DNA of 31,901 nt from Gemmatimonadota bacterium (lineage in GTDB: Bacteria; Gemmatimonadota; Gemmatimonadetes; Gemmatimonadales; Gemmatimonadaceae), in contig JANMLN010000188.1 in the NCBI GenBank assembly GCA_031372565.1, positions 1 through 31,901 of the forward strand. The letters run 5' to 3'. Every line of letters starts with the position of its first letter. Positions within the stretch are counted from its first letter, which is position 1. The notes under the pieces were generated by a model. The model had not been told where the DNA came from. It searched no databases and saw nothing but the letters and a program-made list of their open reading frames with translations. Shown here in pieces: positions 1 through 28,800 of the stretch. The translations under genes were made by a program, and so were the position numbers.

Positions 1-606
1 CAGGGCGAGGCCGGTGATCCAGCGCGCCAGGTCGCGTGCGCCGGGGCCCGCCGTTCCCACCGATGAGCTGGCCGAGCTGCCGGTCGTGTAGATGGCGTTG
101 GCGTGCAGGCGCACGCCGGCGTCGAACGAGCGCGTGACCAGTGCGCCGAGGCTCGTGTAGACGCGATCAGGGCCCAAACCACCGCCGGGGAGCAGTGCGT
201 CGACGCGGAGCGCGAGCGCCGGGAGTGTGGTGCTCTCGGCGTTGAGTTGATGCAGGACGCCGATGTCGATGCCCGCGAGCGCGGTGGTCCGCGTGCCTCC
301 CGCGTCGAACATGGCGAGCGGAAGGCCGAGCTCGAGTTCGGTGCGTGGCAGGATGCCGAGCGTGAAGCCCGGTTCCATGCCCCAGAGGTAGCTGCCGCCC
401 TTGGAGCGTTCGAGGCGCAGCGGGGCGACCTGGAGCTCCAGGCCCCAGCGCTCGACCGCGACCGCATCTTCGATCGTGAAGGGGCGGCCACGATCGGTGT
501 TCATGAAGTCGGTCTGAGCACTCGCCGGTCGGGCGAGACTGAGCAAAAGGCACGCACGCAATGCGAGGCCGAGACGGCGTCGCGCGTGCAGCATGTTCGG
601 TGGCAT
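1..606 (-). CDS. Secreted, probable outer-membrane beta-barrel/transporter-like protein (partial, runs off the left edge)
   Basis: Not in the ORF track because it has no stop in the window. Manual translation from ATG 606 (alt ATG 594): MPPNMLHARRRLGLALRACLLLSLARPASA|QTDFMNTDRGRPFTIEDAVAVERWGLELQVAPLRLER...WGMEPGFTLGILPRTELELGLP...LHQLNAESTTLPALALRVDALLP. Sec signal peptide with ASA cleavage site, then amphipathic beta-strand patterns. Confidence 0.75.
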   Translation of the reverse strand, partial: MPPNMLHARRRLGLALRACLLLSLARPASAQTDFMNTDRGRPFTIEDAVAVERWGLELQVAPLRLERSKGGSYLWGMEPGFTLGILPRTELELGLPLAMFDAGGTRTTALAGIDIGVLHQLNAESTTLPALALRVDALLPGGGLGPDRVYTSLGALVTRSFDAGVRLHANAIYTTGSSASSSVGTAGPGARDLARWITGLAL

Positions 607-619
607 GGGTGGCAGTCCA

Positions 620-709
620 GTCCGGATGGCGCGCCCCGAAGTACGCCGGGCGGACGGTCGTCCGCGGCGAGGGGGCGGGATCACGCGCGCCACGGTGGGC
701 GCGCCGGAC
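620..709 (-). promoter_or_regulatory. Intergenic mRNA stem-loop between the leader ORF stop and the RBS region of the downstream gene
   Basis: On the mRNA, GTCCGG-CGCGCCC (709-697) pairs with GGGCGCG-[CCAT]-CCGGAC (636-620). An inner hairpin GCGGAC/GTCCGC lies at 650-665. The 3' arm ends next to GGA motifs 9-15 nt upstream of ATG 606. Confidence 0.5.
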
Positions 710-712
710 GGG

Positions 713-1153
713 TCAGCGCGGAGGGGGAGTTTCGGGGGCGTCCGAGCGGGACGCGAGTGCTGCTGGCTCAGGGGCATTGGCCCGTTCCACCGTGGGCACG
801 ACGATCAGATCGGTCATGCTCACGGGAACGGTTGGCGCCGCATTGGCGCACGCCGCCATGAACGCGCAGGCAGTGGTGCGGCCGTGGTGCGAGGGCGCGG
901 CGGGTACCCCGGCGTCGTGCGGCGCAGCGGTGAGCGCTTCGGCCGCAACGACGTGGTGATTGCCGTGCGCTGCGTGTGCGTCAGGCGCCGGCGCAACGGG
1001 CGCCTCTTGGGCTTCGGCGTGGTGCGCGCTCGCCACTCCATGCGCATCCCCCGCGACCGACACCGACGCGCACCACGTGCCCGCGCGCGCCACCTCTCCC
1101 GGGAGGAGCAGCAGCGCGGCGAGCAGCGCGAAGAGGCGACGATGGCGGGTCAT
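713..1153 (-). CDS. Small secreted His/Cys-rich protein with C-terminal PETPPPR; CutF/CruR/CopL-like putative regulatory leader
   Basis: ATG 1153, 4 nt after the upstream stop; 146 aa. Signal peptide MTRHRRLFALLAALLLLPGEVARA, 10 His in the mature region, CAFMAAC motif, about 40-aa spacer, ends APETPPPR*. Confidence 0.7.
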   Translation of the reverse strand: MTRHRRLFALLAALLLLPGEVARAGTWCASVSVAGDAHGVASAHHAEAQEAPVAPAPDAHAAHGNHHVVAAEALTAAPHDAGVPAAPSHHGRTTACAFMAACANAAPTVPVSMTDLIVVPTVERANAPEPAALASRSDAPETPPPR

Positions 1154-1157
1154 GCGA

Positions 1158-2192
1158 CTACGGTCGGCAGGAGACGCCGCGATCGTAGACGCCACTGTTG
1201 AAGGTCACCTGCGTCAGGGTGACCGCCGGCGACGTGCGCGCGATGTAGACGTGCGAGGCGCGGTCATTGCCCAGCGCCGTGAAGGCAATGCGTGTCTGGC
1301 TGAGCCAGCACACCGAGAAGTCGCTCAGCGAGTTGGGCTGGATGGTGAGCGGCAGCGTCGGAATGGTGACGATGCTGGCCTCGCCCGTGCCGTCCGGGTT
1401 CATCGTCTTGAGCGTCGTTGCGGTGAGTTGATCGGCCGCGTCGTACGCCAGCTCGAGGAAGGCGATCTTGCTCGCGTCGGGCGACCAGGTCGCGCCCTGG
1501 AAGATCGGGCCGATGCCGCTCCGGGTGTCGGAGCGCAGCATCACGCGATTGCCGCCGTTGAAGTTCATCGCCCAGATGCGCCACCCCGACGAGCTGGTGA
1601 CGAGGAGCAGCCGGTCGGCGGCATTCACGGACACCGGGGCATCGGCGTTCCAGGTAAACGACTGCGAGTCGGGGAGCAGCAGCGTATCGCGGATGCTGCC
1701 GGCGGTCGGGTTCTGGCGGACCACGACCGAGCGGCCGTTGCCACGGTACAGGTAGTAAACCTTGGTGCCGTCGGCCGACCAGCTTGGAAATTGTTCCACC
1801 TCGACGCCGCTGGTGAGGCGCGTCTCGATCGAGTCGGTGATGCGTGTGGTGTACACGTCGAAGATCGAGCTGCCGGACTGCGTCTGCGCCCCGTACACCA
1901 GCTGCCCCGTGGTCGGGTTCTGCAGCGCCCGGTCGACGGCGCGACCCCCGAGGAGGTTCTGCACCCGTCGGGCGGTGCCATCGATCAGGTAGATGCCGCG
2001 AAAGCACCCGGCGGTCGTGCCAAACCGCTGGAACGACAGCTTGGCGCCGCCCAGCGAGTCGTACGGGGCCAGCTCCAGCGCCGGCAGGATCGACACCGCG
2101 CAGGTGGAGGTCGGATCGTCGATGACCGACGACCCGAAACAACCCGACAGCGACACGGCGACCACGGCACAGGCGAACAAGCGAAAACGCAT
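1158..2192 (-). CDS. Lipoprotein with TolB-like/PD40 beta-propeller repeats
   Basis: ATG 2192, lipobox VSLSGC, PD40-type motifs FPSWSADGTKVYY and ATWSPDASKIAF. Confidence 0.8.
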   Translation of the reverse strand: MRFRLFACAVVAVSLSGCFGSSVIDDPTSTCAVSILPALELAPYDSLGGAKLSFQRFGTTAGCFRGIYLIDGTARRVQNLLGGRAVDRALQNPTTGQLVYGAQTQSGSSIFDVYTTRITDSIETRLTSGVEVEQFPSWSADGTKVYYLYRGNGRSVVVRQNPTAGSIRDTLLLPDSQSFTWNADAPVSVNAADRLLLVTSSSGWRIWAMNFNGGNRVMLRSDTRSGIGPIFQGATWSPDASKIAFLELAYDAADQLTATTLKTMNPDGTGEASIVTIPTLPLTIQPNSLSDFSVCWLSQTRIAFTALGNDRASHVYIARTSPAVTLTQVTFNSGVYDRGVSCRP

Positions 2193-2326: not shown

Positions 2327-5305
2327 ATGCCCCGTCGACTCGTCTCCCGCGCGCTGCTCGCCCTGCTCACCCTGTCGTCGCTCGGCGCCCTCCCGCTCTC
2401 GGCCCAGCGCCCCCTCGTGGCCTCCGACCTGGGCGCGCTGACCTTCCGGTCCATCGGCCCGGCGGCGATGAGCGGTCGCATCACCGACCTGGCCATCGTC
2501 GAGCGCGACCCGACGGTGATCTATGCGGCCAGCGCCACGGGTGGTCTCTGGAAGACGACCGACGCCGGCATCACCTGGGCGCCGGTCTTCGACCGTGAAG
2601 CCACGAACTCCATCGGGGCGGTGGCCGTCTCCCAGGCGCGACCGACCGACGTCTGGGTCGGCACCGGCGAGGCGACCAACCGGCAGAGCTCCGGGTGGGG
2701 CGACGGCGTCTACAAGTCGTCCGATGGTGGCAAGAGCTGGCGCAACGTCGGGCTCGGCGATTCGCACCACATCTCGCGCATCCTCGTGCACCCGTCCAAC
2801 CCGGACATCGTGTACGTGGCCGCGGTCGGGCATCTGTGGGGACCGAACAACGAACGCGGGTTGTACAAGACCACCGATGGCGGCCGCACCTGGACGCGCG
2901 TGCTCTTCGTGGACAACGAGACCGGCATCGCCGACATCGCCATCGACCTGTCCAATCCCGAGATCGTGTACGCGGCCAGCTACCAGCGCCGCCGCCAGCC
3001 GTTCGGCTTCGTGGGCTCAGGCCCTGGCAATGCGCTCTGGAAGACCACCGACGGCGGCGCGACCTTCAAGAAGCTCACCAACGGCCTCCCCACCGGCACG
3101 CTCGGCCGCATCGGCATCTCGATCTACCGCAAGACGCCGTCAACGGTGTACGTGAGCGTCGAGCAGGGGCTCCGCTACACGTCGTCGATCTCGTACGACA
3201 AGCGACTCGCCGGTGTCTATCGCTCGGCCGATCGCGGTGAGTCGTTCCGTCGCATGGGCGACTGGAATCCGCGTCCGGCGTACAGCTCGCGCATCACCGT
3301 CGATCCGAACGACGAGTCGCGCATCTACATGGTGCAGTACTCGGTGTCCGACGACAGCGGCAAGACGTTCAAGGAGCCGCGCCAGACGCTGCACGGCGAT
3401 GATCGCCTCGTGTGGGTCGATCCCGCCGACTCGCGTCACCTGGTCAAGGCGGACGACGGTGGTGTCGGGATTTCATGGGATCGCGGCGTGAAGTGGCTGT
3501 ACGTGAGCACCTTGCCCGTGAGCCAGTGGTACCATGTGCGCGTCGACAACGCCCGCCCGTACAAGGTGTACGGTGGCTTGCAGGACAACGGCAGTTGGGA
3601 AGGCCCGAGCGCGACGTACTCCACCAATGGCATCGCCAACGACGATTGGTGGCGCGTCGGCGGCGGCGACGGCTTCCTCATCATCCCGGACACGGTCGAT
3701 CGCACCACGATCTACGTCGAATCGCAGTACCTGGGTCTCGAGCGGTTCAACCGCATGACGCGCGAGAGTGCGAGCATCCGCCCGGTCGGACCCGAAGGGG
3801 AAGGGCCCAAGCTCGGCAACTGGGGTGCGCCGGATCCGCGCATCGGCAAGAAGGTCAAGCCGGCCAACTGGAACGCGCCGTACCTGATTTCGCCGCACGA
3901 CAACAACACGCTGTATGCCGGCATGAAGGAGCTCTACAAGAGCACCGATCGCGGCACCACGTGGACGTCGCTCGGTGATCGCACGACGGGCACCAACCGC
4001 CGCACGCTGGCCATCATGGGGCAGCTCCCGGCCGATACCACGCTGTCGCTCGACGATGGCGTGAGCTTCTGGCCCACGATCTCGGCGCTCGCCGAGTCGC
4101 CGATGCGGAAGGGGGTGCTCTGGGTCGGGACCGATGACGGCAACGTGCAGCGGTCGCTCGATGGCGGTCGCACCTTCGTGAACCTGGCCGACAAGGTGCC
4201 GGGCTTGCCGAAGGGGACGTGGATCGCGGCGGTGACGCCGTCACGGCACGCGGCCAAGCGCGTGTATCTCGCCGCCGATGGTCACCAGGCCGACGACTAC
4301 ACCAACTACCTGTGGGTGAGTGAGGACGATGGCGCGACGTTCACGTCGATCGCGAGCGACCTGCCGCCCGGGCGCGTGATTCACGCCGTGGTCGAGGCGC
4401 TGGCCAACCCGGATGTGCTCTACCTCGGCACCGAGTTCGGCCTGTTCGTGTCGGTCGATCGCGGCGCGCATTGGCTCTCGATGCGCAACAACATGCCCAA
4501 CGTGCCGGTCAACGACATCGCCATTCAACCGCGCGAGCGCGATCTCGTGCTCGCCACGCACGGGCGGGGCGTCTGGATTCTCGACGACATTTCCGCGATT
4601 CGGGACCTCTCGCCAGCCGTGCGTGCGAAGGCGCTCCACCTCTTTCCGCCGCGCGAGGCTGAAATGAAGCGGCTCGCGAACGAGCGCCCGCATACGGGCG
4701 ACATGTATTTCCGCGGGGAGAATCCCGTGAACGGCGCGTTGATCACCTACTGGATGGCGAATGCCGGCAACGCGGCGCAGGTGACGCTCACCGTGCACGA
4801 GGCCAAGGGCGGCGCGCTGGTGGCGACGCTCAAGCCGACGGCCAACGCCGGGCTCAATCGCGTGAACTGGAACCTGCGCTATCCGGATCTGCCGGGACCC
4901 GCCGCGCAGGGCGACGACGACGAGGGACCGCAGGCGCCGCGAGGCCACTGGGTGCGACCGGGCGCATATGTCGTGCGCCTGACCGCAGCTGGGGTGACGA
5001 CCGAGCAGCCGCTGACGGTCGTGGATGATCGTCGGATTGCGGTGCCCGCCATCGTGCGCGGCAACTGGCACACGACCATGCGGTCGCTCACGGCGCTGTA
5101 CCTGGGCGCCGACTCGCTGGCCACCAAGGCCAAGGGGCAGGGGGACAAGTCGGAACTCGCCCTCACCGCTGGCGAACTGCGCACCCGGATCGGCGCGCTC
5201 TATCGCAACGTGTTGCGCGTGACCGCCGAGCCCACGGCCGCACAGAAGGCGCAGGCCAGGTACTTCGCGGGGGCGCGGGACTCCCTGCGTGCGCTGATCA
5301 AGTAG
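2327..5305 (+). CDS. Secreted BNR/Asp-box (VPS10/sortilin-like) repeat glycosyl hydrolase-like protein
   Basis: 992 aa with signal peptide; FRSIGPAAMSGRI; many S/TxDGGxTW Asp-boxes; YGGLQDNG, GGGDG, GTDDG and ATHGRG motifs. Confidence 0.9.
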   Translation: MPRRLVSRALLALLTLSSLGALPLSAQRPLVASDLGALTFRSIGPAAMSGRITDLAIVERDPTVIYAASATGGLWKTTDAGITWAPVFDREATNSIGAVAVSQARPTDVWVGTGEATNRQSSGWGDGVYKSSDGGKSWRNVGLGDSHHISRILVHPSNPDIVYVAAVGHLWGPNNERGLYKTTDGGRTWTRVLFVDNETGIADIAIDLSNPEIVYAASYQRRRQPFGFVGSGPGNALWKTTDGGATFKKLTNGLPTGTLGRIGISIYRKTPSTVYVSVEQGLRYTSSISYDKRLAGVYRSADRGESFRRMGDWNPRPAYSSRITVDPNDESRIYMVQYSVSDDSGKTFKEPRQTLHGDDRLVWVDPADSRHLVKADDGGVGISWDRGVKWLYVSTLPVSQWYHVRVDNARPYKVYGGLQDNGSWEGPSATYSTNGIANDDWWRVGGGDGFLIIPDTVDRTTIYVESQYLGLERFNRMTRESASIRPVGPEGEGPKLGNWGAPDPRIGKKVKPANWNAPYLISPHDNNTLYAGMKELYKSTDRGTTWTSLGDRTTGTNRRTLAIMGQLPADTTLSLDDGVSFWPTISALAESPMRKGVLWVGTDDGNVQRSLDGGRTFVNLADKVPGLPKGTWIAAVTPSRHAAKRVYLAADGHQADDYTNYLWVSEDDGATFTSIASDLPPGRVIHAVVEALANPDVLYLGTEFGLFVSVDRGAHWLSMRNNMPNVPVNDIAIQPRERDLVLATHGRGVWILDDISAIRDLSPAVRAKALHLFPPREAEMKRLANERPHTGDMYFRGENPVNGALITYWMANAGNAAQVTLTVHEAKGGALVATLKPTANAGLNRVNWNLRYPDLPGPAAQGDDDEGPQAPRGHWVRPGAYVVRLTAAGVTTEQPLTVVDDRRIAVPAIVRGNWHTTMRSLTALYLGADSLATKAKGQGDKSELALTAGELRTRIGALYRNVLRVTAEPTAAQKAQARYFAGARDSLRALIK

Positions 5306-7468: not shown

Positions 7469-9280
7469 CTACTTGCCCGTCACCTCGATCGTGCGTTCGG
7501 CGTGCAGCGCGATGGCCTGCCCCTTGAGCTCGATGTCGATTTCGATCCGCCACACCCCCTTGTTGAGCGTGGAGATGTCGAGCGAGACCGCACGTGAGGC
7601 GCGATTCACGCCGGGGGTGGTCTGGTCGCCGATGCGCATCGAGACCGGCTCCGTCGCCTTCATGAGGCTGAGTCGCCGCGCCTGACGGGTGAAGAACCCC
7701 GCGTCGTCGATCTCCGGGATGACGGTGATCGTCACCGTGGCCTGCTCACCGGCGGCATCGACGCCATACAGCTCCCAGTACATCCCGATCTTGTCGGTCG
7801 ACTTGAGGCGCAGCACGCCCAGCGCCACCGCGGCGGCTTCGTCGAGCGTGGCGGGTGACTCGCCCCCGGCGCGGTACAGCAGCAGGTCGGAGAGCGTGAC
7901 GCGCGCGCCCACCGACAGCGGCGGCTGAATGCCGTAGCGACTGCGTGCCGCCCACGACTTGGCGAGGTTGCGCAGTTCGGCCGAGAGGAGCACCCCGCCC
8001 CAGCGGGTGCGCGCCATGAGCGAACCGGTGGCGCCCTCGAGGGTGGCCCGTGCGACGCCGGCGCGCAGGCTGCTGTCGGAGACGCTGATGGCGGCCTCGA
8101 AGGGGCCCGCTGGCGCCTTCTGGTCGCGCGCGTCGAAGGCCACGACGACGACGGCCGTATCACCCCGGCGAAAGAGCGCGGCCTGATGGGTCAGCGGCAC
8201 CAGCGTGTTGGCGTAGCTGGGTCCGTAGCGTCCGAACGCCGGGCGATAGTCGGGCGCCCAGAGCGACGAGTCGGTGCGCCACGGATAGTCGAACATCCCG
8301 GTGAGCGGCACGAACGGATAGGCGGGCACGTGCTCGTGTCCCACGATCGACTCCGGCACCCCCTGACCGCGCCCGCGACTCTTGCTCCAGGCCATCGAGC
8401 GCCCGTAGCGAATGAGCATCTCTCGCTCGTCCTTGTTGAAGGCGAACTGATAGGGACTGATCGTGCCGTCGAGGATCTGCGCCATGGTGAGGCGCGCGTG
8501 GAACTCGGAGCGCGCATCGTTGGGGCCCCGTCCGAAGAACGGGCGCGCGAGCCACCAGAAGCGCTGCTCGAAATCGGCCTTCTGCTCGCAGGTCATCTTG
8601 AGGTAGCGACCGCGCAGCGCGTCGTCGAGCAGCATCAGGATGTCGCCCCACCGGCAGCGCTCGAGCGGCGTCATGCGACCCAGCGCATCGGCAAAGGCCG
8701 CCTCGGCTCCGGCAAAGTTGGACGCTTCCTGCAACGCGAGGCCCAGCAGCTGCGCACACCACGGGCCGGTGGCGGTACAGGCTCGCGCCGCCCGTTCGGC
8801 GTCGGCCACACGTCCCGCCTCGAACAGGTAGCGAATGCGCTGCCCGGCAATCCAGCGCTCGCCGGGAAAGGCGACGGCGATGGAGTCGAGCAGGATCAGC
8901 AGTCGCGCGCGCGCCTTGCCGACGGCCGGATCTTCGACCGGCGGCGGTGGCGCCTTGGGATCGTACCAATAGCAGAACGTGCCGATCTGTTCATCGCAGT
9001 CGCCCGAACCGCGGCCCAGGTCGGCTTCGCGCAGCCGCCACCGCCGGTACGCCTCGAAGTCGCGCTGCGCGACGCGCGCGTCTTCGGGGGTCGGTGGCTC
9101 CGTCATGCCGCTGTCGCGCGCGCCCGGCGCCTGATTGGTGTCGATGGCGGGCGCCATGCCCCCGCGGGGCGGACCGGGCGGGAAGCCACCGCCACGACCA
9201 CGTCGCTGCGCGTTGGCGATCCAGGGGAGCGCGGCGGAGCCGAGCAGGAGCGCGATCAGGAGGGGTCGAAGGCGGGGCAT
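7469..9280 (-). CDS. Secreted hypothetical protein with a helical (TPR-like) region and a divergent GWxTD-like segment
   Basis: 603 aa, signal peptide ending ANA|Q, Gly/Pro-rich linker, FWWLARP...NDARSEFHAR...DEREMLIRYG, beta-rich C-terminal domain. Confidence 0.7.
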   Translation of the reverse strand: MPRLRPLLIALLLGSAALPWIANAQRRGRGGGFPPGPPRGGMAPAIDTNQAPGARDSGMTEPPTPEDARVAQRDFEAYRRWRLREADLGRGSGDCDEQIGTFCYWYDPKAPPPPVEDPAVGKARARLLILLDSIAVAFPGERWIAGQRIRYLFEAGRVADAERAARACTATGPWCAQLLGLALQEASNFAGAEAAFADALGRMTPLERCRWGDILMLLDDALRGRYLKMTCEQKADFEQRFWWLARPFFGRGPNDARSEFHARLTMAQILDGTISPYQFAFNKDEREMLIRYGRSMAWSKSRGRGQGVPESIVGHEHVPAYPFVPLTGMFDYPWRTDSSLWAPDYRPAFGRYGPSYANTLVPLTHQAALFRRGDTAVVVVAFDARDQKAPAGPFEAAISVSDSSLRAGVARATLEGATGSLMARTRWGGVLLSAELRNLAKSWAARSRYGIQPPLSVGARVTLSDLLLYRAGGESPATLDEAAAVALGVLRLKSTDKIGMYWELYGVDAAGEQATVTITVIPEIDDAGFFTRQARRLSLMKATEPVSMRIGDQTTPGVNRASRAVSLDISTLNKGVWRIEIDIELKGQAIALHAERTIEVTGK

Positions 9281-19361: not shown

Positions 19362-20255
19362 TTACCCGAAGAGATGATGTCGCGCTGCCTCGGAGATCGT
19401 GACGACCGCCGGGTGCTTGAGCTTCCGATCCGCCGAGATGGCGTAGAACCGTTCGCGCACCTCGTCGAGGCGGCCGAGCACCTGCACGCCATAGGAGGCG
19501 CGCACGCTCGTTTCGGCAACGGTCGGCGCGGCAAACAACCCCATGCCCGCCTGGCCGAACACCTGCAGGATCGCCACGTCGTCCACTTCGGCGACCACCG
19601 ACGGGCGGACCCCGGACGTGTGAAACCACTGTTCGAGGGAACGCCGCAGCGCGCTCGTTTCGCCATGCAACAGGAACGGCGCGCCGTCGAGTGAGTGCGG
19701 AAAGTTGCGCCGGTACTTGCGCGCCAGTGCCGGCGTGCCGAACACGGTCACGCCACACTCGCCGAGCAAGTGGTTGAAGGCGCGAATGCGCACGGTCGGT
19801 GGCACCGGCACGTCGGCGAGCACGAGATCGAGCGCGTGAATGGCCAGGTCGCCCAGCAGTCGATCCACCTTGTCGGTGCGACAGGTGACGCGATACTCGG
19901 CGGCGGCGTTTCCCAGTGCTGGCTCGAGCAGCTTCCACGCCGTGAGCTTGGGAAGCGCGTCGCTGATCCCGACGGCAAAGCGCACGGGTCGTCCCGTGGG
20001 ACGGCCGGCCAGCGTGGTGACCAGTTCGCGGCCGAGGCCGAAGATCTCCTCGGCGTAGCGGAGCGTGACCTGTCCGACGTCCGTGAGCACGAGGTTGCGC
20101 CCGCGCCGCTGGAACAGTTGCTCGCCCAACTCCTGCTCCAGCGCCTTGAGCTGCACCGAGATGGTCGGTTGCGTGAGCCCGAGCACGCGCGAGGCGCGCG
20201 AGATCGATCCCTCGCGCGCCGTGACCCAGAAGTAGTGCAGGTGTTGGTAGTTCAG
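19362..20255 (-). CDS. nhaR: LysR-family regulator, NhaR-like (probable CTG start)
   Basis: The frame extends upstream of the ORF-track start to (L/M)NYQHLHYFWVTAREGSISRASRVLGLTQPTISVQLK, the NhaR-type HTH. Also LAIHALDLVLAD, FNHLLGEC, ERFYAIS, HPAV. 297 aa from CTG 20255. Confidence 0.82.
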   Translation of the reverse strand: MNYQHLHYFWVTAREGSISRASRVLGLTQPTISVQLKALEQELGEQLFQRRGRNLVLTDVGQVTLRYAEEIFGLGRELVTTLAGRPTGRPVRFAVGISDALPKLTAWKLLEPALGNAAAEYRVTCRTDKVDRLLGDLAIHALDLVLADVPVPPTVRIRAFNHLLGECGVTVFGTPALARKYRRNFPHSLDGAPFLLHGETSALRRSLEQWFHTSGVRPSVVAEVDDVAILQVFGQAGMGLFAAPTVAETSVRASYGVQVLGRLDEVRERFYAISADRKLKHPAVVTISEAARHHLFG

Positions 20256-20270
20256 GGCCGCTCCCCGTCG

Positions 20271-21158
20271 CTAGTACTTGTACGTGAGGATGAGTCGCGT
20301 GATCGAGACGTCATCCGGGCTCGTGTAGATCTGCCCGGTGAGATCCACCCGGCGAAACATCCGCCACGTGGCACCGCCGCCCAACGTGAACCGGTTGATG
20401 CGCTCCTTGATCGTCACGAGCGACCGATCGACCGGCGGCAGCGGCGTGATGTATCCCACGCCCGGCTGGAAGTTCACCTGGAACTCGGGCTGCATCGAGT
20501 TCACGCCGGTGGTGAGGAAGACGGCATACTCGCCGAGGTCGATGGCGGCCGACAGCTCCGCCCCGGACACATTGGGCGTGTAGCGGTCGTTCGAGATCTG
20601 CTTGCCCCAGCAGTCCTGCGTGGCATTGGCCTGCAGCGCATCCAGGCCGCACGTGATCGGTCCTTCGACGGAGCCAAGCACGGTGTGCACGCGGGCCTGC
20701 GCAATCAGGCTCGATCCGGCCACGATCGCCACGCGACGGGTCCACGCGAGCGCCACACCGAGCAGGTTGGCGGTCGCGTCCTTGACCTGGAGCGGCGGGA
20801 CATACGACAGCTCGACCTCGAAGTTGAACGGCAATCCCACCGTGAGGCGCGGCCGCGGAAAGATCGACGCGAGGTTGGTCGACTCCTGCTTCGAGCTGGC
20901 GTAGCAGTTGGTGGCCCGCTGCGCGCTGTTCGCCGACGGCATGGGCGTGACGTCCAACGAGAGCCGCCACTGGCCGGGGCGCAGTTGATCGGGCTGCACC
21001 GAGGTGCTGAAGGCGAGCGGCACGGCATAGAACGCGAGGAGCCTGGCCTCCGGACTCGTGACCGGGAGGTTGGTGCACTGGGCCGCCATGGAGCGAAGCG
21101 GCAAGACGACCACGGCGGCCGCGACGAGCGCGGCCGACAATCGGCGGAGAGGCATCAT
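20271..21158 (-). CDS. Secreted probable outer-membrane beta-barrel protein
   Basis: Signal peptide ending MAA|Q, amphipathic strands (PRLTVGLPFNFEVELSYVPP), C-terminal aromatic TYKY, four Cys. Confidence 0.65.
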   Translation of the reverse strand: MMPLRRLSAALVAAAVVVLPLRSMAAQCTNLPVTSPEARLLAFYAVPLAFSTSVQPDQLRPGQWRLSLDVTPMPSANSAQRATNCYASSKQESTNLASIFPRPRLTVGLPFNFEVELSYVPPLQVKDATANLLGVALAWTRRVAIVAGSSLIAQARVHTVLGSVEGPITCGLDALQANATQDCWGKQISNDRYTPNVSGAELSAAIDLGEYAVFLTTGVNSMQPEFQVNFQPGVGYITPLPPVDRSLVTIKERINRFTLGGGATWRMFRRVDLTGQIYTSPDDVSITRLILTYKY

Positions 21159-21243
21159 CAGAAGTTGGTTCGCGGGGCTGCGGTGCGGAAGCTACCCCGA
21201 CTGGCGCCCGCCGTTCCGCCGCATTTGTCCGCTGCGATGCACT

Positions 21244-21279
21244 GCGATGCGGCGCCCCCAAGCCGGAGCGCCGCATCGC
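21244..21279 (-). terminator. 12-bp perfect hairpin just downstream of sbtB; possible terminator or mRNA-stability element
   Basis: GCGATGCGGCGC (21244-21255) and GCGCCGCATCGC (21268-21279), 8 nt after the sbtB stop; no U-tract. Confidence 0.45.
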
Positions 21280-21287
21280 GAGGGTGC

Positions 21288-21605
21288 TCAGGCGTACTTC
21301 TCGCCGCGCAGCACGTGGACCTCGCTCACCCACGCGATCACGGCGTAGTGAGCGAAGTAGTGTGCGGCCATGTGGTCCATGATCGCGTGTGCGCTGGCGG
21401 CCGAGACGACGCACTCGAGGCGGACGTGCGCGCCGCCGAAGTCCGAGGCCCGGATGCCGCGTGAGCCTTGGCCGCGCCCTTCGCTCACGGAGAACCCGCG
21501 GGCGCCGAGCGACCGCAGCTCGCGCGTGAGCTGTTCCTCGAGCACGGGTTCGGCGATGATCGTCACGAGCTGCAGCGTGGTGCCAAGAGGCGAGGCTGAC
21601 ATCAT
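21288..21605 (-). CDS. sbtB: P-II-like signalling protein, SbtB-like
   Basis: TGATG overlap with sbtA; LVTIIAEPVLE...LGARGFSVSEGRGQGSRG...VLRGEKYA; 105 aa. Confidence 0.85.
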   Translation of the reverse strand: MMSASPLGTTLQLVTIIAEPVLEEQLTRELRSLGARGFSVSEGRGQGSRGIRASDFGGAHVRLECVVSAASAHAIMDHMAAHYFAHYAVIAWVSEVHVLRGEKYA

Positions 21606-22603
21606 CACATCCCGGCCGCCCACTGGGCGGCCCTGAAGTAGAGGGGAATCCCGAAGAGCACGTTGAACGGGAAGGTGATCGCGAGTGCCGAGGTGAGGTA
21701 CAGGGTCGGGTTCGCGTCGGGGAGCGTGACACGCACCGCCGGCGGTGCGGCGATGTAGGACGCGGACGCGGCCATGGTCCCCAGGACCGTGGCACCGCCC
21801 ACCGACAGACCGGCCAGCGTGCCGAGCCACGCGCCGAGGCAGCCGTGTACGACCGGCCACGCGATCGCGAAGACGAAGAGGAAGGGTCCGACCTTGCGCA
21901 GGTCGCCCAGGCGCGCGCCCGCGAGCACGCCCATCTCGAGCAGGAAGATGCAGAGGACACCGCGGAAGATGGCGCCCTTGGAGTCATAGAACGGCTGCAC
22001 GACCTCCCAGTTCTTGTGTCCCATCAGCGCGCCGATGATCAGGCCACCGACGAGCAGCACCATCGTGCGGGCGGTGAGGACCTCGTGCAGGACGTGCTTG
22101 ATGTTCTGTTCCGGGCGCGCCGTCTTGATGGCGCCGATCGCGAGCGCAATGTGGATGCCCGGGCTCTCGAGGAGCGCGAGCAGCGTGGGCATGAACCCCT
22201 CGACGGGCGGGATGGCGGGGTTGGCCTGCGCCATGGCGGTCATGAAGTTGCCGGCCGCGACGAAGGTAACCGCGGAGACCGACCCGTAGTGGGCGGCGAT
22301 GCCGGCCGAGTCCGAGATGGAGAACTTGCCGAGATAGCGCAGCGTGCCGTAGGCGCTCAGCGGCGTGATGACGCCGAGCAGGATCGTCATGCCGGCCGGC
22401 TTGAGGATCGACGCGAAGGAGGCGTCGGCCAGCTCCACGCCGCCCTTGAGGCCGAGGGCGAAGAGGAGGTAGACGGAGATGCCGGTGTAGATGTCCTTGG
22501 GCAGGGAGAACTCGCTCCGGATGAGCCGGGCGACGATGCCGAGCGCGAAGGACAGCGCGATCGGGTTCAGGAGATTGGCCTTGAGGAGGCCGGACATGTC
22601 CAT
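21605..22603 (-). CDS. sbtA: Sodium-dependent bicarbonate transport family permease, SbtA-like
   Basis: Polytopic; YLLFALGLKGG, AAHYGSVSAVTF, LLESPG, FLLEMG, ASASYIAAP, ITFPFN. Confidence 0.92.
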   Translation of the reverse strand: MDMSGLLKANLLNPIALSFALGIVARLIRSEFSLPKDIYTGISVYLLFALGLKGGVELADASFASILKPAGMTILLGVITPLSAYGTLRYLGKFSISDSAGIAAHYGSVSAVTFVAAGNFMTAMAQANPAIPPVEGFMPTLLALLESPGIHIALAIGAIKTARPEQNIKHVLHEVLTARTMVLLVGGLIIGALMGHKNWEVVQPFYDSKGAIFRGVLCIFLLEMGVLAGARLGDLRKVGPFLFVFAIAWPVVHGCLGAWLGTLAGLSVGGATVLGTMAASASYIAAPPAVRVTLPDANPTLYLTSALAITFPFNVLFGIPLYFRAAQWAAGM

Positions 22604-22694: not shown

Positions 22695-22866
22695 ATAGCG
22701 TCGGCGCGGGCCACACCGCCGCCGTGAGCCGCATCACCGCCGCCGACCGGTCGTGGGTCGTATTGTCGTGCACGCCTGCCGCGCCGCGCGCCGCGTGGTT
22801 GCCCCGGCCCGTGCGGGGGCGCACTATTCACAGGTCGTCCTGCTTCCTCGAAGCCCCGTCGTAATC

Positions 22867-25800
22867 GTGCGCTTCCGCCGCGTTGTTGTTCTGGCTCTGG
22901 CCGCTGTTGCGCTGGCTGCCGCGTGCTTCCCCGATTCGACCGGCCCGCGGCTCCTCGCGCGCGCTGCGCTCGCGGTCCTTCCGACCTGGGCCAATCCACT
23001 GTCGGCGGGCGCCCCCGTCGCCCGTGCGCGCATCATCGCGCGGCGCGCGGACGGCTCGGTCGCCAAGGACACGGTGGTCACCTTCCCGGCGGGTGCAGAT
23101 TCGCTCGTCGTCAGCCTCGACGTGCCCTTGGCCGGCGGTGGCGCGGGTGGCAGCGAGCCGTTTGGCGTTGCGTTCAAGCTCATCGGGCCGGCAGGCGACA
23201 CGATCTTCACGGGTGGCCCGGTGCCGGTCACCGGATATGCACCGGGCCGCGCGCCCGCCGGACAGGTGGCGGTCACCGTGCCGACCATCTATGTCGGGCC
23301 GGGCAAGAACGCGCAGTCCATCAACGTCATCGTGCGGGACACCTCGGTTGCCTTCGGCGATTCGATCACCCTCACGGCTCTCGCCAGGGATTCCGCCGGC
23401 GCCCCCCTCCCGGGGACGCTCATCGCGTGGACCTCGACCGACACCACGCGGCTCACGGTCACCGACAAGTTCGGTGGCACGCTCAAGGGGGGCACGCGAC
23501 GCGGCCTCGTCAAGGCGCTTGCCAGGACGCTGACCGGGCAAGCGGACACGGTGAATGTGACCGTGCAGCCCGTGGCCAGCGCCGTGTTCAGCCTTGGCGG
23601 CAACGGGCAGAGCGGGGCCGCGGGCTCGCGCCTGCTCCCCTTCCGCATCAAGGTGATCGCCCCCGACTCGCTCGGCGTGCGCGGTGTGGCGGTTGCCTGG
23701 AGCATCGTCTCTGGCGGCGGCACCCTGTCGAGCGCGACCGTCTTCACCGATTCCGGCGGCGTTGCTGCCGACACGCTCACCTTGCCCACTGTCCCCGGGC
23801 CCGTCAGCGTGCGCGCGACCGTCGCCGGGCTCGCAGGTTCTCCGGTGACGTTCCTTGCGACCGCCGTGCCAGGTGTGCCGACCCGGCTCGTCTTCACGGT
23901 CAATCCGCCGGCGGTCAGTCTCGCCGGGCAGGGGCTCGTCCCCACCGTGACTGTCACCGAGCAAGATGCGCTCGGCAACGTCGTGACCACGGCCACCGAT
24001 TCGATCGTGCTCGCGATCGGCGCCAACCCCGGAAGCTCCGCGCTCTCGGGCGTGGTCCGTGCGCGGGCCATCAACGGGGTGGCCACCTTCCCCGGCATCG
24101 CCCTCAACCGGGTGGGCAGCGGCTACACGCTGAGCGCCAGCACTCCCACGCCCGGCATCACGGCTGCGACCTCAACCACGTTTGCGATTTCCGCCGGTGC
24201 GCCGGCCGTCCTGGCCGTTATCACGGACCCGTCGTCGACCAGCTCACTCTCGCCGATTGCACCGCCGGTGGTGATCGAAATCCGCGACGCCGCGGGCAAC
24301 CCGGTCACGTCGGCGACGAATCCAGTCACGCTCGCCATCACCGCGGGCTCGGGCACCGCGGGCGCGACGCTGGGTGGCACCAGGACGGTGAGCGCGATCG
24401 GCGGGCTTACGACCTTCAGTACGCTGACGGTTGACCGCGTCGGCACGGGCTACCGGCTCGACGCGACGGCCCCCGGTCTCGCGAGCGTCACCACGGCTCC
24501 GTTCGTGATTGGCGCGGGCGTGCCCGCATCGCTCTTCTTCATCGCACCACCGCCCGCGACCGCGACGTCGCTGTCGCCGTTCAGCACGACCGTGCAGATC
24601 CGCGATGCGATCGGCAACGTGGTCACGAGCGCCACGGATACGGTCACGCTCAGCATCAACACGGGGCCCGGTGGCGGAGCGCTCGCGGGCCTCGTGAAGG
24701 TCGCGGCGTCGGGCGGCGTGGCCACCTTCCCGAGTGTCACGCTCGACAAGGCCGGCGCGTACACGATCAACGCCACGCGCACGGGCACGCCGCCGGCGAC
24801 GTCGGGAAGCATCGCGCTACAGCCCGGTGCGCCGGCCGTCCTTGCCGTCATCACGGACCCGTCGTCGACCAGCTCACTCTCGCCGATTGCGCCGCCGGTG
24901 GTGATCGCCATCCTCGACGCCGCTGGCAACGCGGTCACGTCGGCGACGAATCCGGTCACGCTCGCCATCACCGCCGGCTCGGGCACCGCGGGCGCGGCGC
25001 TGGGTGGCACCAGGACAGTGAACGCGATCGGCGGGCTGGCGACCTTCAGTACCCTGACGGTTGACCGCGTCGGCACGGGCTACCGGCTCGACGCGACCGC
25101 CGCCGGTCTCGCGAGCGTCACCACGGCTCCGTTCGTGATTGGCGCGGGCGTGCCCGCAACGCTCTTCTTCATCGCGCCACCGCCCGCGACCGCGACGTCG
25201 CTCTCGCCGTTCAGCACGACCGTGCAGATCCGCGATGCACGCGGCAACCTGGTCACGAGCGCCACGGATACGGTGACGCTCAGCATCAACACGGGGCCCG
25301 GTGGCGGAGCGCTCGCGGGCCTCGTGAAGGTCGCGGCGTCGGGCGGCGTGGCCACTTTCCCGAGCGTCACGCTCGACAAGGCGGGCGCGTACACGATCAA
25401 CGCCACGCGCACGGGCACGCCGTCGGCGACGTCGGGGAGCATCGCGCTACAGCCCGGTGCGCCGGTGTCACTCCAGTTCGTCGTGTCGCCCTCGTCCACG
25501 GGGAGTGCGGGGGTCTCGATCCCCGGGCAACCGATCGTGTTCGTGGCGGATGCGGCGCTCAACACGGTGACCTCCGCGACCGGCACGGTGACCGCGACCT
25601 ACGTCGGTCCTGCAACCGTGACCGCCGGCGCGACCGCGACGATCTCGAGTGGCGTTGCCGCCTTCACGTCGCTGGCCATCGGCGGGATCGTCAGCGCGGG
25701 AACACTCACCTTCTCCGATGGCACGCGGACCACGCCGGGCGCGTCGTTCACGCTGCTCGCCGGTCCGCCCTCGGCGGTGCTGGCGGATTCCGGCAACGCG

Positions 25801-28800
25801 CAGACGGGCAACCCGAGCGCGTCGCTCGGCGCGAGCCTCGTGGCGCGTGTGCTCGATGCGTTCAGCAATCCGGTGAGCGGCGTTCCCGTGTCGTTCGCGG
25901 TCAACGCCGGCGGTGGATCACTCGGCGCGCCGAGTGGTGTGTCGGATGCCAACGGACGCGCGCGCACCTCGTGGACCTTGGGTGGCGGATTCGGTGGCAA
26001 CAGCGTCGATGCGACGGCAACGGGGGTCGGCGTGCCCGTGCCGTTCGGCGCGTTCGCCGTGCCGGTCGGTACCACGGCGACATGGGTCGGTACCAGCAGC
26101 ACCAACTGGACCACCGCGCTCAACTGGAGTCCTGCCCTCGTGCCCACGGCCGCGAGCAATGTGTTCGTGCCGAGCGGGACGACCTTTGCGCCGGTGCTCA
26201 CGGCGGCGCAGTCGACGCTCGACATGACCGTCATGCCGGCGGTGCCGTTCAATCTCGGCGCGTTCAATCTGACGGTGAACGGCAACTTCGACGGGGGCAC
26301 GGCGATGCTGGCCGCCGGTGGTCAGGTCTTGATGGCGGGCTCGGCCCGGACGATCGTCGGGCAGAACTTGCCGGGCGTGATCGTCAACAACGTCACCGTG
26401 GTGGGCGGGCGCACGACGCTCGCCGGTACGCTGTCGATCGCGGCGGGCAGCCTCAATGTGAACGGCCGAACGCTCGTGGTCGCGGGCACCTTCGGCACAT
26501 CGGGGCTCGGAGTCCTCGTGATGCAGAACCCGCTCGACTCCCTGCTCGTGGCGGGAGCGGTGAGCTTCGCCGGCAACAGTACGTCGGGCTTGCTTACGGC
26601 CGGGACGTTGCTGGTCCAAGGCCCGAGTTTTGCGCAGGCGTCGCCCACCAGTCCGAACGCCTTTGCCGCGAGTGGCAACCACACCACCGTCTTCACCGCG
26701 GCCGGCGGCACGAGCGTGTCGTTCGCCGCACCCACGGCGTCGCGGTTCCAGCACCTCACGATCGCCAGCGGCGCCGTGACCTTTGGATCATCGGCCGCGA
26801 TCGGCGGCGACGCCACGCTCCAGGGCGCGGCGGGCACGGTGTTGGCGCCAGGCAGCACTGACACGGTAACGGTCGCGGGCAACCTCGTCGATCCGTCAGG
26901 TACAGCCAAGTGGCAGGTCGGGCGCACCAAGCTCACGCGCTCCGGGGTGACCGTGCTGCCGACGCTCATGGGCGTCACGGGAAACAGCATCGAGATCGCC
27001 ACGGCAGGCGCGCTCGCGCTCAACACGCCGGTGCGCATCGCCGGGAATGTGCGCGTCACGACCGGCGCGCTGGAGATTCTGGCGGCCACGGACACGATCG
27101 ATGGCTTCTTCGACACCGCCCTGTCGGGCGCGTTGCGCATGGCGACTGCGGGTGGCGGCCTGCTGCTGAGCCGCAGTGCGACCTTCGCTGGCGGCAGCAC
27201 GGCGTCGCAACTCACCAACGGCATTCTGGCGTTGGGCGGGAACCTGACGCAGACGACGACGAACAATGCGTTCGCGCCGAGTGGGCTGCATGAGACCGTG
27301 TTCGTGGGCGCCGGCGTGCAAGTGGTCAACTTTGCGTCGACGACGGGATCATTCTTCGCGAACCTGACGGCCGCGAGCGGCGGCACGGTGACGCTGCCGT
27401 CGGGCACACTCGTCAACGGCAACATGGCCGCGTTCAGCGCGGTAGTGGGGCCGTTGGTCACCATTGGCGGCGACCTCACCGATGCATTGCCTGCGGGCAG
27501 TCCATTCTGGCAGGTGGGCACGACGCAGTTCACAAGGAATGGCAGCGTGAACCTGCCAACCCTCATCGGCAGCAGCAGCACGATCATCGCCACGGCTGGC
27601 ACCTTCAGCCCCACCGGGCGCGTGCGCTTCGCCGGGACGCTGTCGGTGACGACCGGTGCGTTCAATGTTGGCGCGTTCGCGGACACCGTCGCGGCGTCCT
27701 TCGCCACGTCGGGCACCGGGTCGCTGCGGATGGCGTCGCCCTCGAGCAGCCTGTTGGTGATTGGCAACGCGTCGTTTGGCGGCGGGACGACGGGTGGTCA
27801 GCTCTCTGCGGGCACACTCCGGGTGCGGGGCAACTTCGTGCAGAACACGACCTCCACGGCCTTCGCCCCGACCGCGGCGCACGTGACGCGATTGGAAGGC
27901 ACGGTCGCGCAGACCGTGAACTTCGCGAATCCGGCAGCCACGACCGGCTCGAGCTTCGCGTCGCTCGTGACGAGGAATGCTGCGGGTGTGGTGTTCAACA
28001 CCAACGTCGTGATCACGGGCGCCATGATCGACTCCGTCGGCACGGTGACCGGTGCGGCGGTGACGGCCACGTTGAACGGCTCACTGTTTGACTCGACCGC
28101 GACGCGGGCCGTTCCGGCGCCGTCGTGGCAGGTGGGCACGACGCGATTCACCGCGGGTGCCGTGACGGCACTGCCGCCCGTGATGACCTCCACCAACGTG
28201 CAGTTCGCATCGCTGTCGTCGTTCACGATGGCCAACGGCGTTCAATTCAACGGCACCGGCGGCGTGGACGTGCAGGCGGGGACGCTCGATCTGAACGGCC
28301 TGAATTCCACGGTGGCGGGCAACTTCAGCACCACGGGTACCGGCGTGCTGCGCATGGCGTCCGGCACTCCGAACCTGCTCATTCAGGGCAACGCGCTCTT
28401 CAGTGGCGGGTCGACGTCCGGCGCGCTCGTCGCCGGGCAGATTCGGTTCGCGGGCAATCTCACGCAGAGCGGTGGGCCCTCGACGTACGACGCCACGGCC
28501 ACACATACGTCGAATTTGCTGGGTGTCGCAACGCAGCAGACCGTGTCGATCGCGAGTCCATCGACGTCGCGGCTGGGCTCGTTTGTGACGTCCGGCACGT
28601 TCAACAAGGTGTTCGCGACCGACGCGACGATTCTGGGCAACGTGGGCATAACGGGGACGGGGCTGATCACCGGACTCAATCGCATGATCACGGTCGGTGG
28701 CGACATGGGCGATGCGGGGGTGCTGTGGGATCCCGATTCCACGACCTTCACCAAGGGCGGCACGTTGACGCTGCCGGCGACCGTGAACGCCATCACCACG

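Follow-up and report, generated by a model that had tools for sequence, protein, structure and literature searches.

A probable metal-sensing leader peptide of the CutF/CruR kind upstream of an outer-membrane channel gene in Gemmatimonadota

To our knowledge, CutF of Rhodobacter capsulatus and CruR of Bordetella pertussis are the only nascent exported peptides reporting copper that have been worked out experimentally. We describe here a further candidate of this kind, encoded by a gene of 146 codons at positions 713-1153, minus strand, of the Gemmatimonadota contig JANMLN010000188.1 (assembly GCA_031372565.1). The whole stretch of 31,901 nucleotides (nt), hereafter the window, was analysed. 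An initial annotation, made from the letters alone, had read this gene as a metal-sensing ribosome-arrest leader resembling CutF and CruR, and that reading is supported by the motifs of the peptide, by the fixed distance between them and by the filters that define the CutF-like class.

CutF has been studied by Ozturk et al. (2021, PMC8456105; 2023, PMC9973294; 2025 preprint, 10.1101/2025.02.05.636593). CutF carries the motif C69xxH72C73 and ends in P109-E-P-E-G-P-P-P-R-L118, with 40 residues intervening between C73 and P114, and production of CutO is abolished when the last ten residues of CutF are deleted or its Cys are mutated (PMC8456105). The action of cutF depends on its translation, on Sec export and on its placement in cis, and the cutO ribosome-binding site is hidden by a stem-loop; the authors argue that, at a distance of ~45 residues, the Cys motif lies in SecY's periplasmic vestibule at the time when the Pro motif occupies the ribosomal tunnel (PMC9973294). 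According to the preprint, there is an interaction between EF-P and the stall at the PPP of CutF, and the chain is cross-linked within the tunnel. CruR (bp2923), a DUF2946 protein of 145 amino acids (aa), has a CXXC motif 45 residues before RAPP, which itself lies three residues from the end. This spacing is conserved and functionally important, and the study also reports a 162-nt spacer, a bubble in which C exceeds G, Rho-dependent termination and little structure in the AlphaFold2 (AF2) model (PMC9426467). The 2023 work on CutF gathered 5,334 CutF-like proteins, in 29 clusters with varied Cys/His motifs and neighbours, by iterative jackhmmer from seeds. To qualify, a protein had to be at most 150 aa long, to carry PP among its last 15 residues as well as a signal peptide, and to be followed within 1000 nt by a gene on the same strand. 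Its Fig. 6C labels SilD of Cupriavidus metallidurans pMOL30 as a CutF-like node, and TnaC, which masks a Rho site, and SecM, which opens a stem-loop, are cited as analogues (PMC9973294).

The leader gene and its family

The leader open reading frame (ORF) runs on the minus strand, an orientation absent from the initial annotation, from ATG at 1153-1151 to TGA at 715-713. The N-terminus of its product, P0001, is MTRHRRLFALLAALLLLPGEVARA followed by G. Read by eye, with no predictor applied, it comprises a basic n-region (R3, R5, R6), a hydrophobic core of 12 residues (LFALLAALLLLP) and an A-x-A with cleavage between ARA and G, so that residues 1-24 form a putative signal peptide. A conserved Cys (C28) follows, and after it comes a variable stretch rich in Ala, His and Pro. 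A lipoprotein reading via C28 was rejected, as GTWC/AVWC is no lipobox. The candidate metal site, HHGRTTA-C96-AFM-AA-C102-A, is a CX5C motif (C96-AFMAA-C102). Forty residues intervene between C102 and P143, and P143-P144-P145-R146 stand directly before the stop. The part from this site to the end can be written as HHG-x-T-x-A-C96-x2-M99-x2-C102-A, a variable spacer of 36 residues, A139-P-E-T-P-P-P-R146 and TGA. The signal peptide, the motif CAFMAAC, the 40 residues, the PPPR before the stop and the 106 nt to a gene for a secreted protein had all been listed before, and each is present with the right count; the ten His also given there are those after the putative cleavage site, the total being 11.

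A word-indexed homology search with P0001 alone returned only the self match, whereas four relatives came from an exhaustive HMMER search over 1.84 billion representatives, and a profile search of a 5.8-billion set brought the family to 15 full-length members and one truncated form. No match was found by tblastn of P0001 against 72,556 plasmids at expectation values (E) up to 10. At the DNA level the window was compared with two contigs of Gemmatimonadota metagenome-assembled genomes, L001 and L002; the other 12 members were compared as proteins.

The family is conserved in a small number of features. C-x2-M-x2-C-A is kept in all 15 full-length members (one of which has G for M), and so is a terminal APExPPPR with 0-2 residues after it. 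Between the second Cys and PPP there are 39-40 residues in every member, or 45-46 counted from the first Cys. This distance stays within one residue while the first Cys itself lies anywhere between residues 68 and 105 (at 176 in P0015), and while both the spacer sequence and the N-terminal half diverge, with indels and a variable N-terminal length. The hydrophobic character of the N-terminus is conserved across the family. Since the length that separates the two motifs is kept and the intervening sequence is not, the region behaves as a ruler rather than as a folded domain. An AF2 prediction of P0001 on the 15-sequence alignment likewise gave no fold, with a mean predicted local distance difference test (pLDDT) of 56 and a predicted template-modelling score (pTM) of 0.21; the only confident parts are an N-terminal helix (residues 3-34) and the last few residues.

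The initial annotation had anticipated that orthologues would keep nothing but the signal peptide, the two Cys, the length of the spacer and a terminal PxxPPPR, and this pattern was found in 15/15 members; the conservation of PPPR and of synteny, whose absence was to count against the reading, was seen in all 15 members and in all three loci, respectively. For the accompanying expectation, a place always ahead of metal-related genes, the comparison covered the two loci that include the downstream DNA. Two details of the initial annotation do not hold across the family. PPPR is the very end of P0001, but this is so in 3/15 members only, ten having one more residue and two having two, of variable identity. 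Similarly, the His-rich sensor region proposed there is present in P0001 but is not a family trait: members have between 3 and 11 His, and the one immediately preceding the first Cys is the only one that most of them share.

Eleven members measure 141-146 aa and one 118 aa, so that 12/15 do not exceed 150 aa; the others have 151, 155 and 226 aa. The longest, P0015, carries an N-terminal extension of 80 residues, and from its sequence its start has probably been called too early. P0005 (82 aa) follows the leader family for its first ~60 residues and then diverges, as would a frameshifted or mis-assembled copy, which it probably is. One subgroup of the family has an extra Cys (GCPxHxxTxxC).

The comparison of the three loci also bears on whether the ORF is translated. 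Between the window, L001 and L002, substitutions at codon positions 1/2/3 number 36/34/72, 49/40/66 and 43/35/59 in the three pairs, and all indels among the three leaders are in frame. The existence of homologues, the in-frame indels and the excess of substitutions at position 3 argue that the ORF is translated, and on this comparative evidence the leader is a real, conserved gene.

It is embedded in an operon. The gene upstream (1158-2192, minus strand) encodes a TolB-like PD40 beta-propeller lipoprotein with the lipobox LSGC, and its stop precedes the leader ATG by 4 nt in all three loci (2018 to 2023 in L001; 6948 to 6953 in L002). As this gap is constant and no Shine-Dalgarno (SD)-like motif precedes the leader, translational coupling of the two genes is suggested. 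Gene order and spacing are conserved in 3/3 loci, the spacer between the leader and the next gene being itself present in two of them, with a length of 106 nt (window) and 105 nt (L001).

Comparison with described nascent-chain sensors

The leader agrees with the rules for CutF-like proteins in length, Pro motif and neighbour, and its N-terminus, read by eye, looks like the signal peptide that they require. P0001 has 146 aa; its PPPR occupies residues 143-146, and PP falls within the last 15 residues in all 15 members; a same-strand neighbour begins 106 nt downstream in the window and 105 nt downstream in L001. All 15 members likewise have a central Cys motif, C-x2-M/G-x2-C, whose distance to the Pro motif is fixed within one residue.

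With CutF the leader shares a small size (146 versus 118 aa for CutF of the cutFOG operon), a putative signal peptide of Sec type, a pair of Cys with a His close by, one or more further Cys near the mature N-terminus, the 40 residues from the second Cys to PPP and a terminal P-E-x-P-P-P-R followed by 0-2 residues. In both systems the leader is followed on its own strand by the gene for an exported protein, and the spacer contains a stem-loop. The two differ in the metal site, which is CxxMxxC (CX5C) in the leader and CxxxC in CutF, in the target, which is predicted to be a channel of COG4313 type and not a multicopper oxidase, and in the placement of the hairpin, which lies just past the leader stop and leaves the start region of the target, ~60 nt further on, uncovered. 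The leader moreover comes from Gemmatimonadota, and no sequence homology to CutF emerged here.

The likeness to CruR is of another sort. The two peptides are of nearly the same length (145 and 146 aa), both are predicted to be exported and to be unstructured, and both carry, ~45 residues past a Cys motif, an arrest motif that contains Pro and stands at the extreme C-terminus. Each is followed by a long G+C-rich spacer (162 nt for CruR, 106 nt here), with a C>G bubble over the end of the ORF and the spacer, and each stands before a gene for an outer-membrane beta-barrel transporter, which is TonB-dependent in the case of CruR and not in that of the leader. Unlike CruR, which has CXXC and RAPP and matches DUF2946, the leader has CX5C and PPPR, and its family does not match DUF2946. 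The regulation by CruR is independent of its signal peptide and of EF-P, whereas the PPP of the leader is a classical EF-P client motif. The earlier description of the leader as a lineage-specific variant with a different Cys spacing is borne out by these comparisons (CX5C, against CxxxC in CutF and CXXC in CruR).

SilD of pMOL30 is also small, with a hydrophobic N-terminus, CxxxC and a PRPPPRP near the C-terminus, and it is encoded upstream of a metal-efflux outer-membrane gene; it differs from the leader in having 47 residues from the second Cys to PPP and 11 residues after PPPR. SilD itself has no Pfam match, and the CutF-like class is thus only loosely tied to DUF2946. With TnaC, SecM, MifM and VemP the leader would have in common a C-terminal arrest at or near the stop that governs the downstream gene in cis. 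These peptides have no sequence relation to it, and they respond to other signals (tryptophan for TnaC, secretion activity for the SecM type).

The downstream RNA, the channel gene and a model of control

The putative arrest site, CCC CCT CCG CGC (P143-R146; 716-727, minus strand), has the TGA (713-715) directly next to it. These last four codons are nucleotide-identical in the window, in L001 (2440-2451) and in L002 (7394-7405), and the codons just upstream of them show synonymous changes among the same loci. With three loci in the comparison, the identity could reflect codon-specific stalling or a constraint on the RNA.

The hairpin SL1 (stem GCGCGCC and GGCGCGC, loop CACCGU; 685-704, minus strand) begins 9 nt past the stop. 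A perfect GC-rich hairpin begins at this same +9 position in 3/3 loci, the stem measuring 7 base pairs (bp) in the window, 10 in L001 and 9 in L002, and the stems differ in sequence, including 2 compensatory pairs. For comparison, only 18 of the 31901 positions on each strand of the window mark the beginning of a perfect hairpin with 7 bp or more. The spacer that separates the leader from the channel gene (607-712, minus strand) is C-rich, with 51 C and 34 G in its 106 nt, and that of L001 has 45 C and 34 G in 105 nt; the L002 contig stops 40 nt beyond the leader stop. A C>G bubble extends from ~779 to 650, that is, from ~66 nt before to ~63 nt past the leader stop. Within it C minus G is +0.23 to +0.28 (78-nt windows), and values of at least 0.20 occur in 1.5% of 1004 coding-strand windows from trusted genes. 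In L001 the difference peaks at +0.21 across the leader stop, and the bubble is therefore seen in both loci with downstream DNA. SL1 and the C>G bubble are real features of this RNA.

Other candidate signals were sought around the leader. An Rfam scan of positions 1-2600 was empty at E up to 1, so that nothing there resembles a riboswitch or leader RNA already described, and a sigma-70 promoter scan returned 0 sites. A three-arm alternative pairing, involving a copy of GCGCGCC (the 5' arm of SL1) ~30 nt before the channel ATG, was dropped since, by eye, it does not transfer to L001. A terminator-like site at 565-553, inside the channel gene, was dismissed as chance, one having been found against 0.9 expected from shuffles. 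SD-like motifs at -10 to -17 precede 4 of the 14 starts checked; with so few, shielding of an SD sequence may be an irrelevant concept in this host.

The target gene (1-606, minus strand; ATG at 606) encodes a secreted beta-barrel and is partial, its first 202 codons preceding the window edge. Its full-length orthologue in L001, P0019, has 276 aa. Neither the window fragment nor P0019 itself matched Pfam, but among the 93 homologues found, mostly from Gemmatimonadota where named, 57 with E of 1e-39 or better were aligned, and 39 of these match PF13557 (Phenol_MetA_deg). The AF2 model of P0019 (pLDDT 88, pTM 0.79) is a barrel by its DSSP strands. Foldseek placed it near FapF (5o68), with a template-modelling (TM) score of ~0.6, near 4rl8, a channel of COG4313 (TMq 0.57), and farther from PcoB (0.41); a profile of the channel family against the sequences of the PDB gave FapF only (E = 0.13). 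On the strength of the model and of these matches, we assign the target to the 12-stranded outer-membrane channels of COG4313/PF13557 type.

The gene that follows the channel gene is visible in L001 (3392-5032, plus strand), where it begins 2 nt past it and encodes a secreted protein of more than 547 aa. This protein has repeated HAGH(T/N)MPM-type motifs (HAGHTMPMP, HAGHNMPMA, HDMATMDHAAHMAAM) and belongs to no family in Pfam, NCBIfam or the ESM Atlas. Its equivalent lies beyond the edge of the window. Cys/Met/His sets and His/Met repeats are ligands of the Cu(I) type. The Cys/Met/His set of the leader and the Met/His repeats of the L001 protein thus point to Cu(I), and by analogy with the described sensors the leader would sense a thiophilic metal, most likely copper.

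The following scheme would account for these features. The leader would be translated just after the TolB-like gene, and its signal peptide would engage the translocon. With the ribosome at P143-P145, the site H-x5-C-x2-M-x2-C, 40-46 residues back, would be just out of the tunnel, in or at the translocon, and metal binding there would alter the dwell of the ribosome on PPPR and the stop. A ribosome with a stop codon in the A site has a footprint that reaches about to the start of SL1. A ribosome parked in this way would lie over the leader's 3' end and 9-12 nt of the adjoining spacer, so that it would either abut SL1 or open it, and the read-out would be premature (Rho-type) termination, or another fate of the mRNA, in the C-rich spacer, as for CruR and TnaC. 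Stalling at the terminal PPPR, the identity of the metal, action in cis, the direction of the regulation and its read-out are parts of the scheme that we infer from the described systems.

The remainder of the window holds no other metal-related gene. Upstream of the operon and divergent from it, positions 2327-5305 (plus strand) encode a secreted protein of 992 aa with sortilin/Vps10 and BNR repeats, an arrangement kept in L001 and L002. Further along lie a gene for a secreted protein of 603 aa (7469-9280, minus strand), with a signal-peptide-like N-terminus, a high proportion of G+C at the third codon position (GC3) and no Pfam family, and, on one strand (19362-22603, minus), genes for a LysR-type regulator and for a member of the Sbt_1 family (Na+-dependent bicarbonate transporter superfamily), together with an ORF of 295 codons. 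The ORF of 2745 codons at 22753-30990 (plus strand) has weak matches to Big_1 (bacterial Ig-like), and it is overlapped on the opposite strand by a series of ORFs of 100-480 codons, whose GC3 is likewise high.

Alternative readings and significance

On balance we consider it probable that the leader is a metal-sensing peptide of the CutF/CruR class which controls the channel gene in cis through stalling at PPPR, a judgement that leans on analogy with these two systems. Several observations weigh against it. No member of the family (0/15) matched DUF2946 (PF11162), or indeed anything in Pfam, at E up to 10, a scan that is limited by the HMMER filters, which drop most matches above ~0.1; nor did P0001 or P0002 match NCBIfam. 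The motifs of the DUF2946 protein CruR, CXXC and RAPP (PMC9426467), are replaced by CX5C and PPPR. A language-model search for look-alikes did place P0001 nearest to clusters automatically named DUF2946 (0.95-0.96), which we take as a lead only. Because the family tests failed, we file the leader under the rule-defined CutF-like class and under its functional kind, and not under Pfam DUF2946. The hhalign comparison of the leader family with SilD of pMOL30 gave a probability of 1%; this leaves homology to the CutF-like class unproven, and convergence could account for the likeness. The leader is also the second gene of its operon, whereas CutF and CruR are encoded first. We know of no metal role for the channel family, and among the papers found for COG4313 and copper, no title or abstract contains either term.

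At the RNA level, folds of the whole spacer are not significantly more stable than those of shuffled sequences (z = -1.7 and -0.6), the downstream context is visible in two loci only, and SL1 lies within the C-rich stretch, contrary to what a fully unstructured rut site would have. A ribosome-sized block placed at the stop hardly changed the accessibility of the channel start (from 0.53 to 0.54 for the window and from 0.36 to 0.38 for L001). Since this simulated stalled ribosome left the start region unexposed, an unmasking of the start as in CutF finds no support and was not adopted, and among the leader models we lean slightly towards a read-out by Rho-type termination or mRNA fate. The most detailed version, in which a copper-sensing arrest peptide specific to Gemmatimonadota acts from mid-operon, gates both the channel and its His/Met-rich partner, masks a Rho site and uses the +9 hairpin in the switch, is a tentative proposal and, taken as a whole, a doubtful one.

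Among the other explanations, the one that deserves most attention is that the protein itself, rather than its synthesis, matters: a stable periplasmic metal-binding protein, acting in trans as a metallochaperone or buffer with the TolB-like lipoprotein, the channel and the His/Met-rich protein, and using its proline-rich end as a docking motif (a polyproline II helix). The signal peptide, the three conserved Cys with Met and His, and the tight operon with envelope proteins all suit such a role, which was considered for CutF by its own authors in 2021 (PMC8456105) before cis-acting translational control replaced it (PMC9973294). We nevertheless think it unlikely here, given that AF2 finds no fold (pLDDT 56), that length and not sequence is conserved between the motifs, which fits a ruler better than a domain, and that the +9 hairpin and the four identical final codons would be left without a role. 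Less probable still is an envelope protein in which the Cys form structural disulfides and the APExPPPR end is a tag for sorting, anchoring or proteolysis. Three conserved Cys in an exported protein could indeed pair in this way, and the absence of a Pfam family for the leader agrees with it; however, the tail past R consists of only 0-2 variable residues, and the coincidence with the CutF terminus and with the ruler would be unexplained. A PEP-CTERM assignment in particular, to which the letters PEP in APEPPPPR had given rise, was rejected, as neither a transmembrane segment nor a basic cluster or tail follows the motif.

There is finally the question of a chance ORF, for which DNA of this composition gives some grounds. 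The G+C content of the window is ~70%, and in DNA of 72% G+C frames rich in Pro, Arg and Ala are common. The leader frame has a GC3 of 0.78, which does not exceed the G+C at its first codon position (GC1, 0.80) and falls short of the GC3 of the neighbouring genes (0.84-0.90); a mirror ORF of 202 codons lies opposite on the plus strand, and codon composition alone does not separate the two frames. However, a chance ORF would not have 15 homologues that keep its motifs and differ by in-frame indels; nor would most substitutions fall on codon position 3 in 3/3 pairs, or its start lie exactly 4 nt past the upstream stop in 3/3 loci. Family conservation and the codon-position pattern effectively refute this explanation.

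The leader is thus best described as a peptide of the CutF/CruR kind from Gemmatimonadota. As a category it is not new, since thousands of such proteins with varied motifs and neighbours have been described (PMC9973294). What distinguishes it is its CX5C site with Met, its position inside an operon, a new kind of target and a hairpin immediately past the stop. No paper was found that names both DUF2946 and Gemmatimonadota, and the main text of PMC9973294, the full list of which (File S1) may already include the family, mentions neither PF13557 nor Gemmatimonadota. For annotation, the lesson is that such leaders escape Pfam and NCBIfam and can yet be recognised by rule.

The value of the family lies in what it has kept. 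An independent, very divergent lineage from another phylum, with no match to any hidden Markov model, retains exactly the parts that are essential by experiment: the putative signal peptide, the Cys pair, the ruler of 40-45 residues and PExPPPR. It offers a natural sequence comparison of the features that the mechanism physically needs and a clean test case for the ruler hypothesis. For the COG4313 channels, whose physiological substrates are poorly known, it suggests copper or a copper complex as a candidate cargo and, if the most detailed version above is correct, would be their first functional tie to metal traffic. PExPPPR and the ruler of ~45 residues would then have arisen, or persisted, across phyla without detectable homology, and the terminus and the ruler would be physical requirements of a ribosome-translocon sensor rather than family heirlooms.

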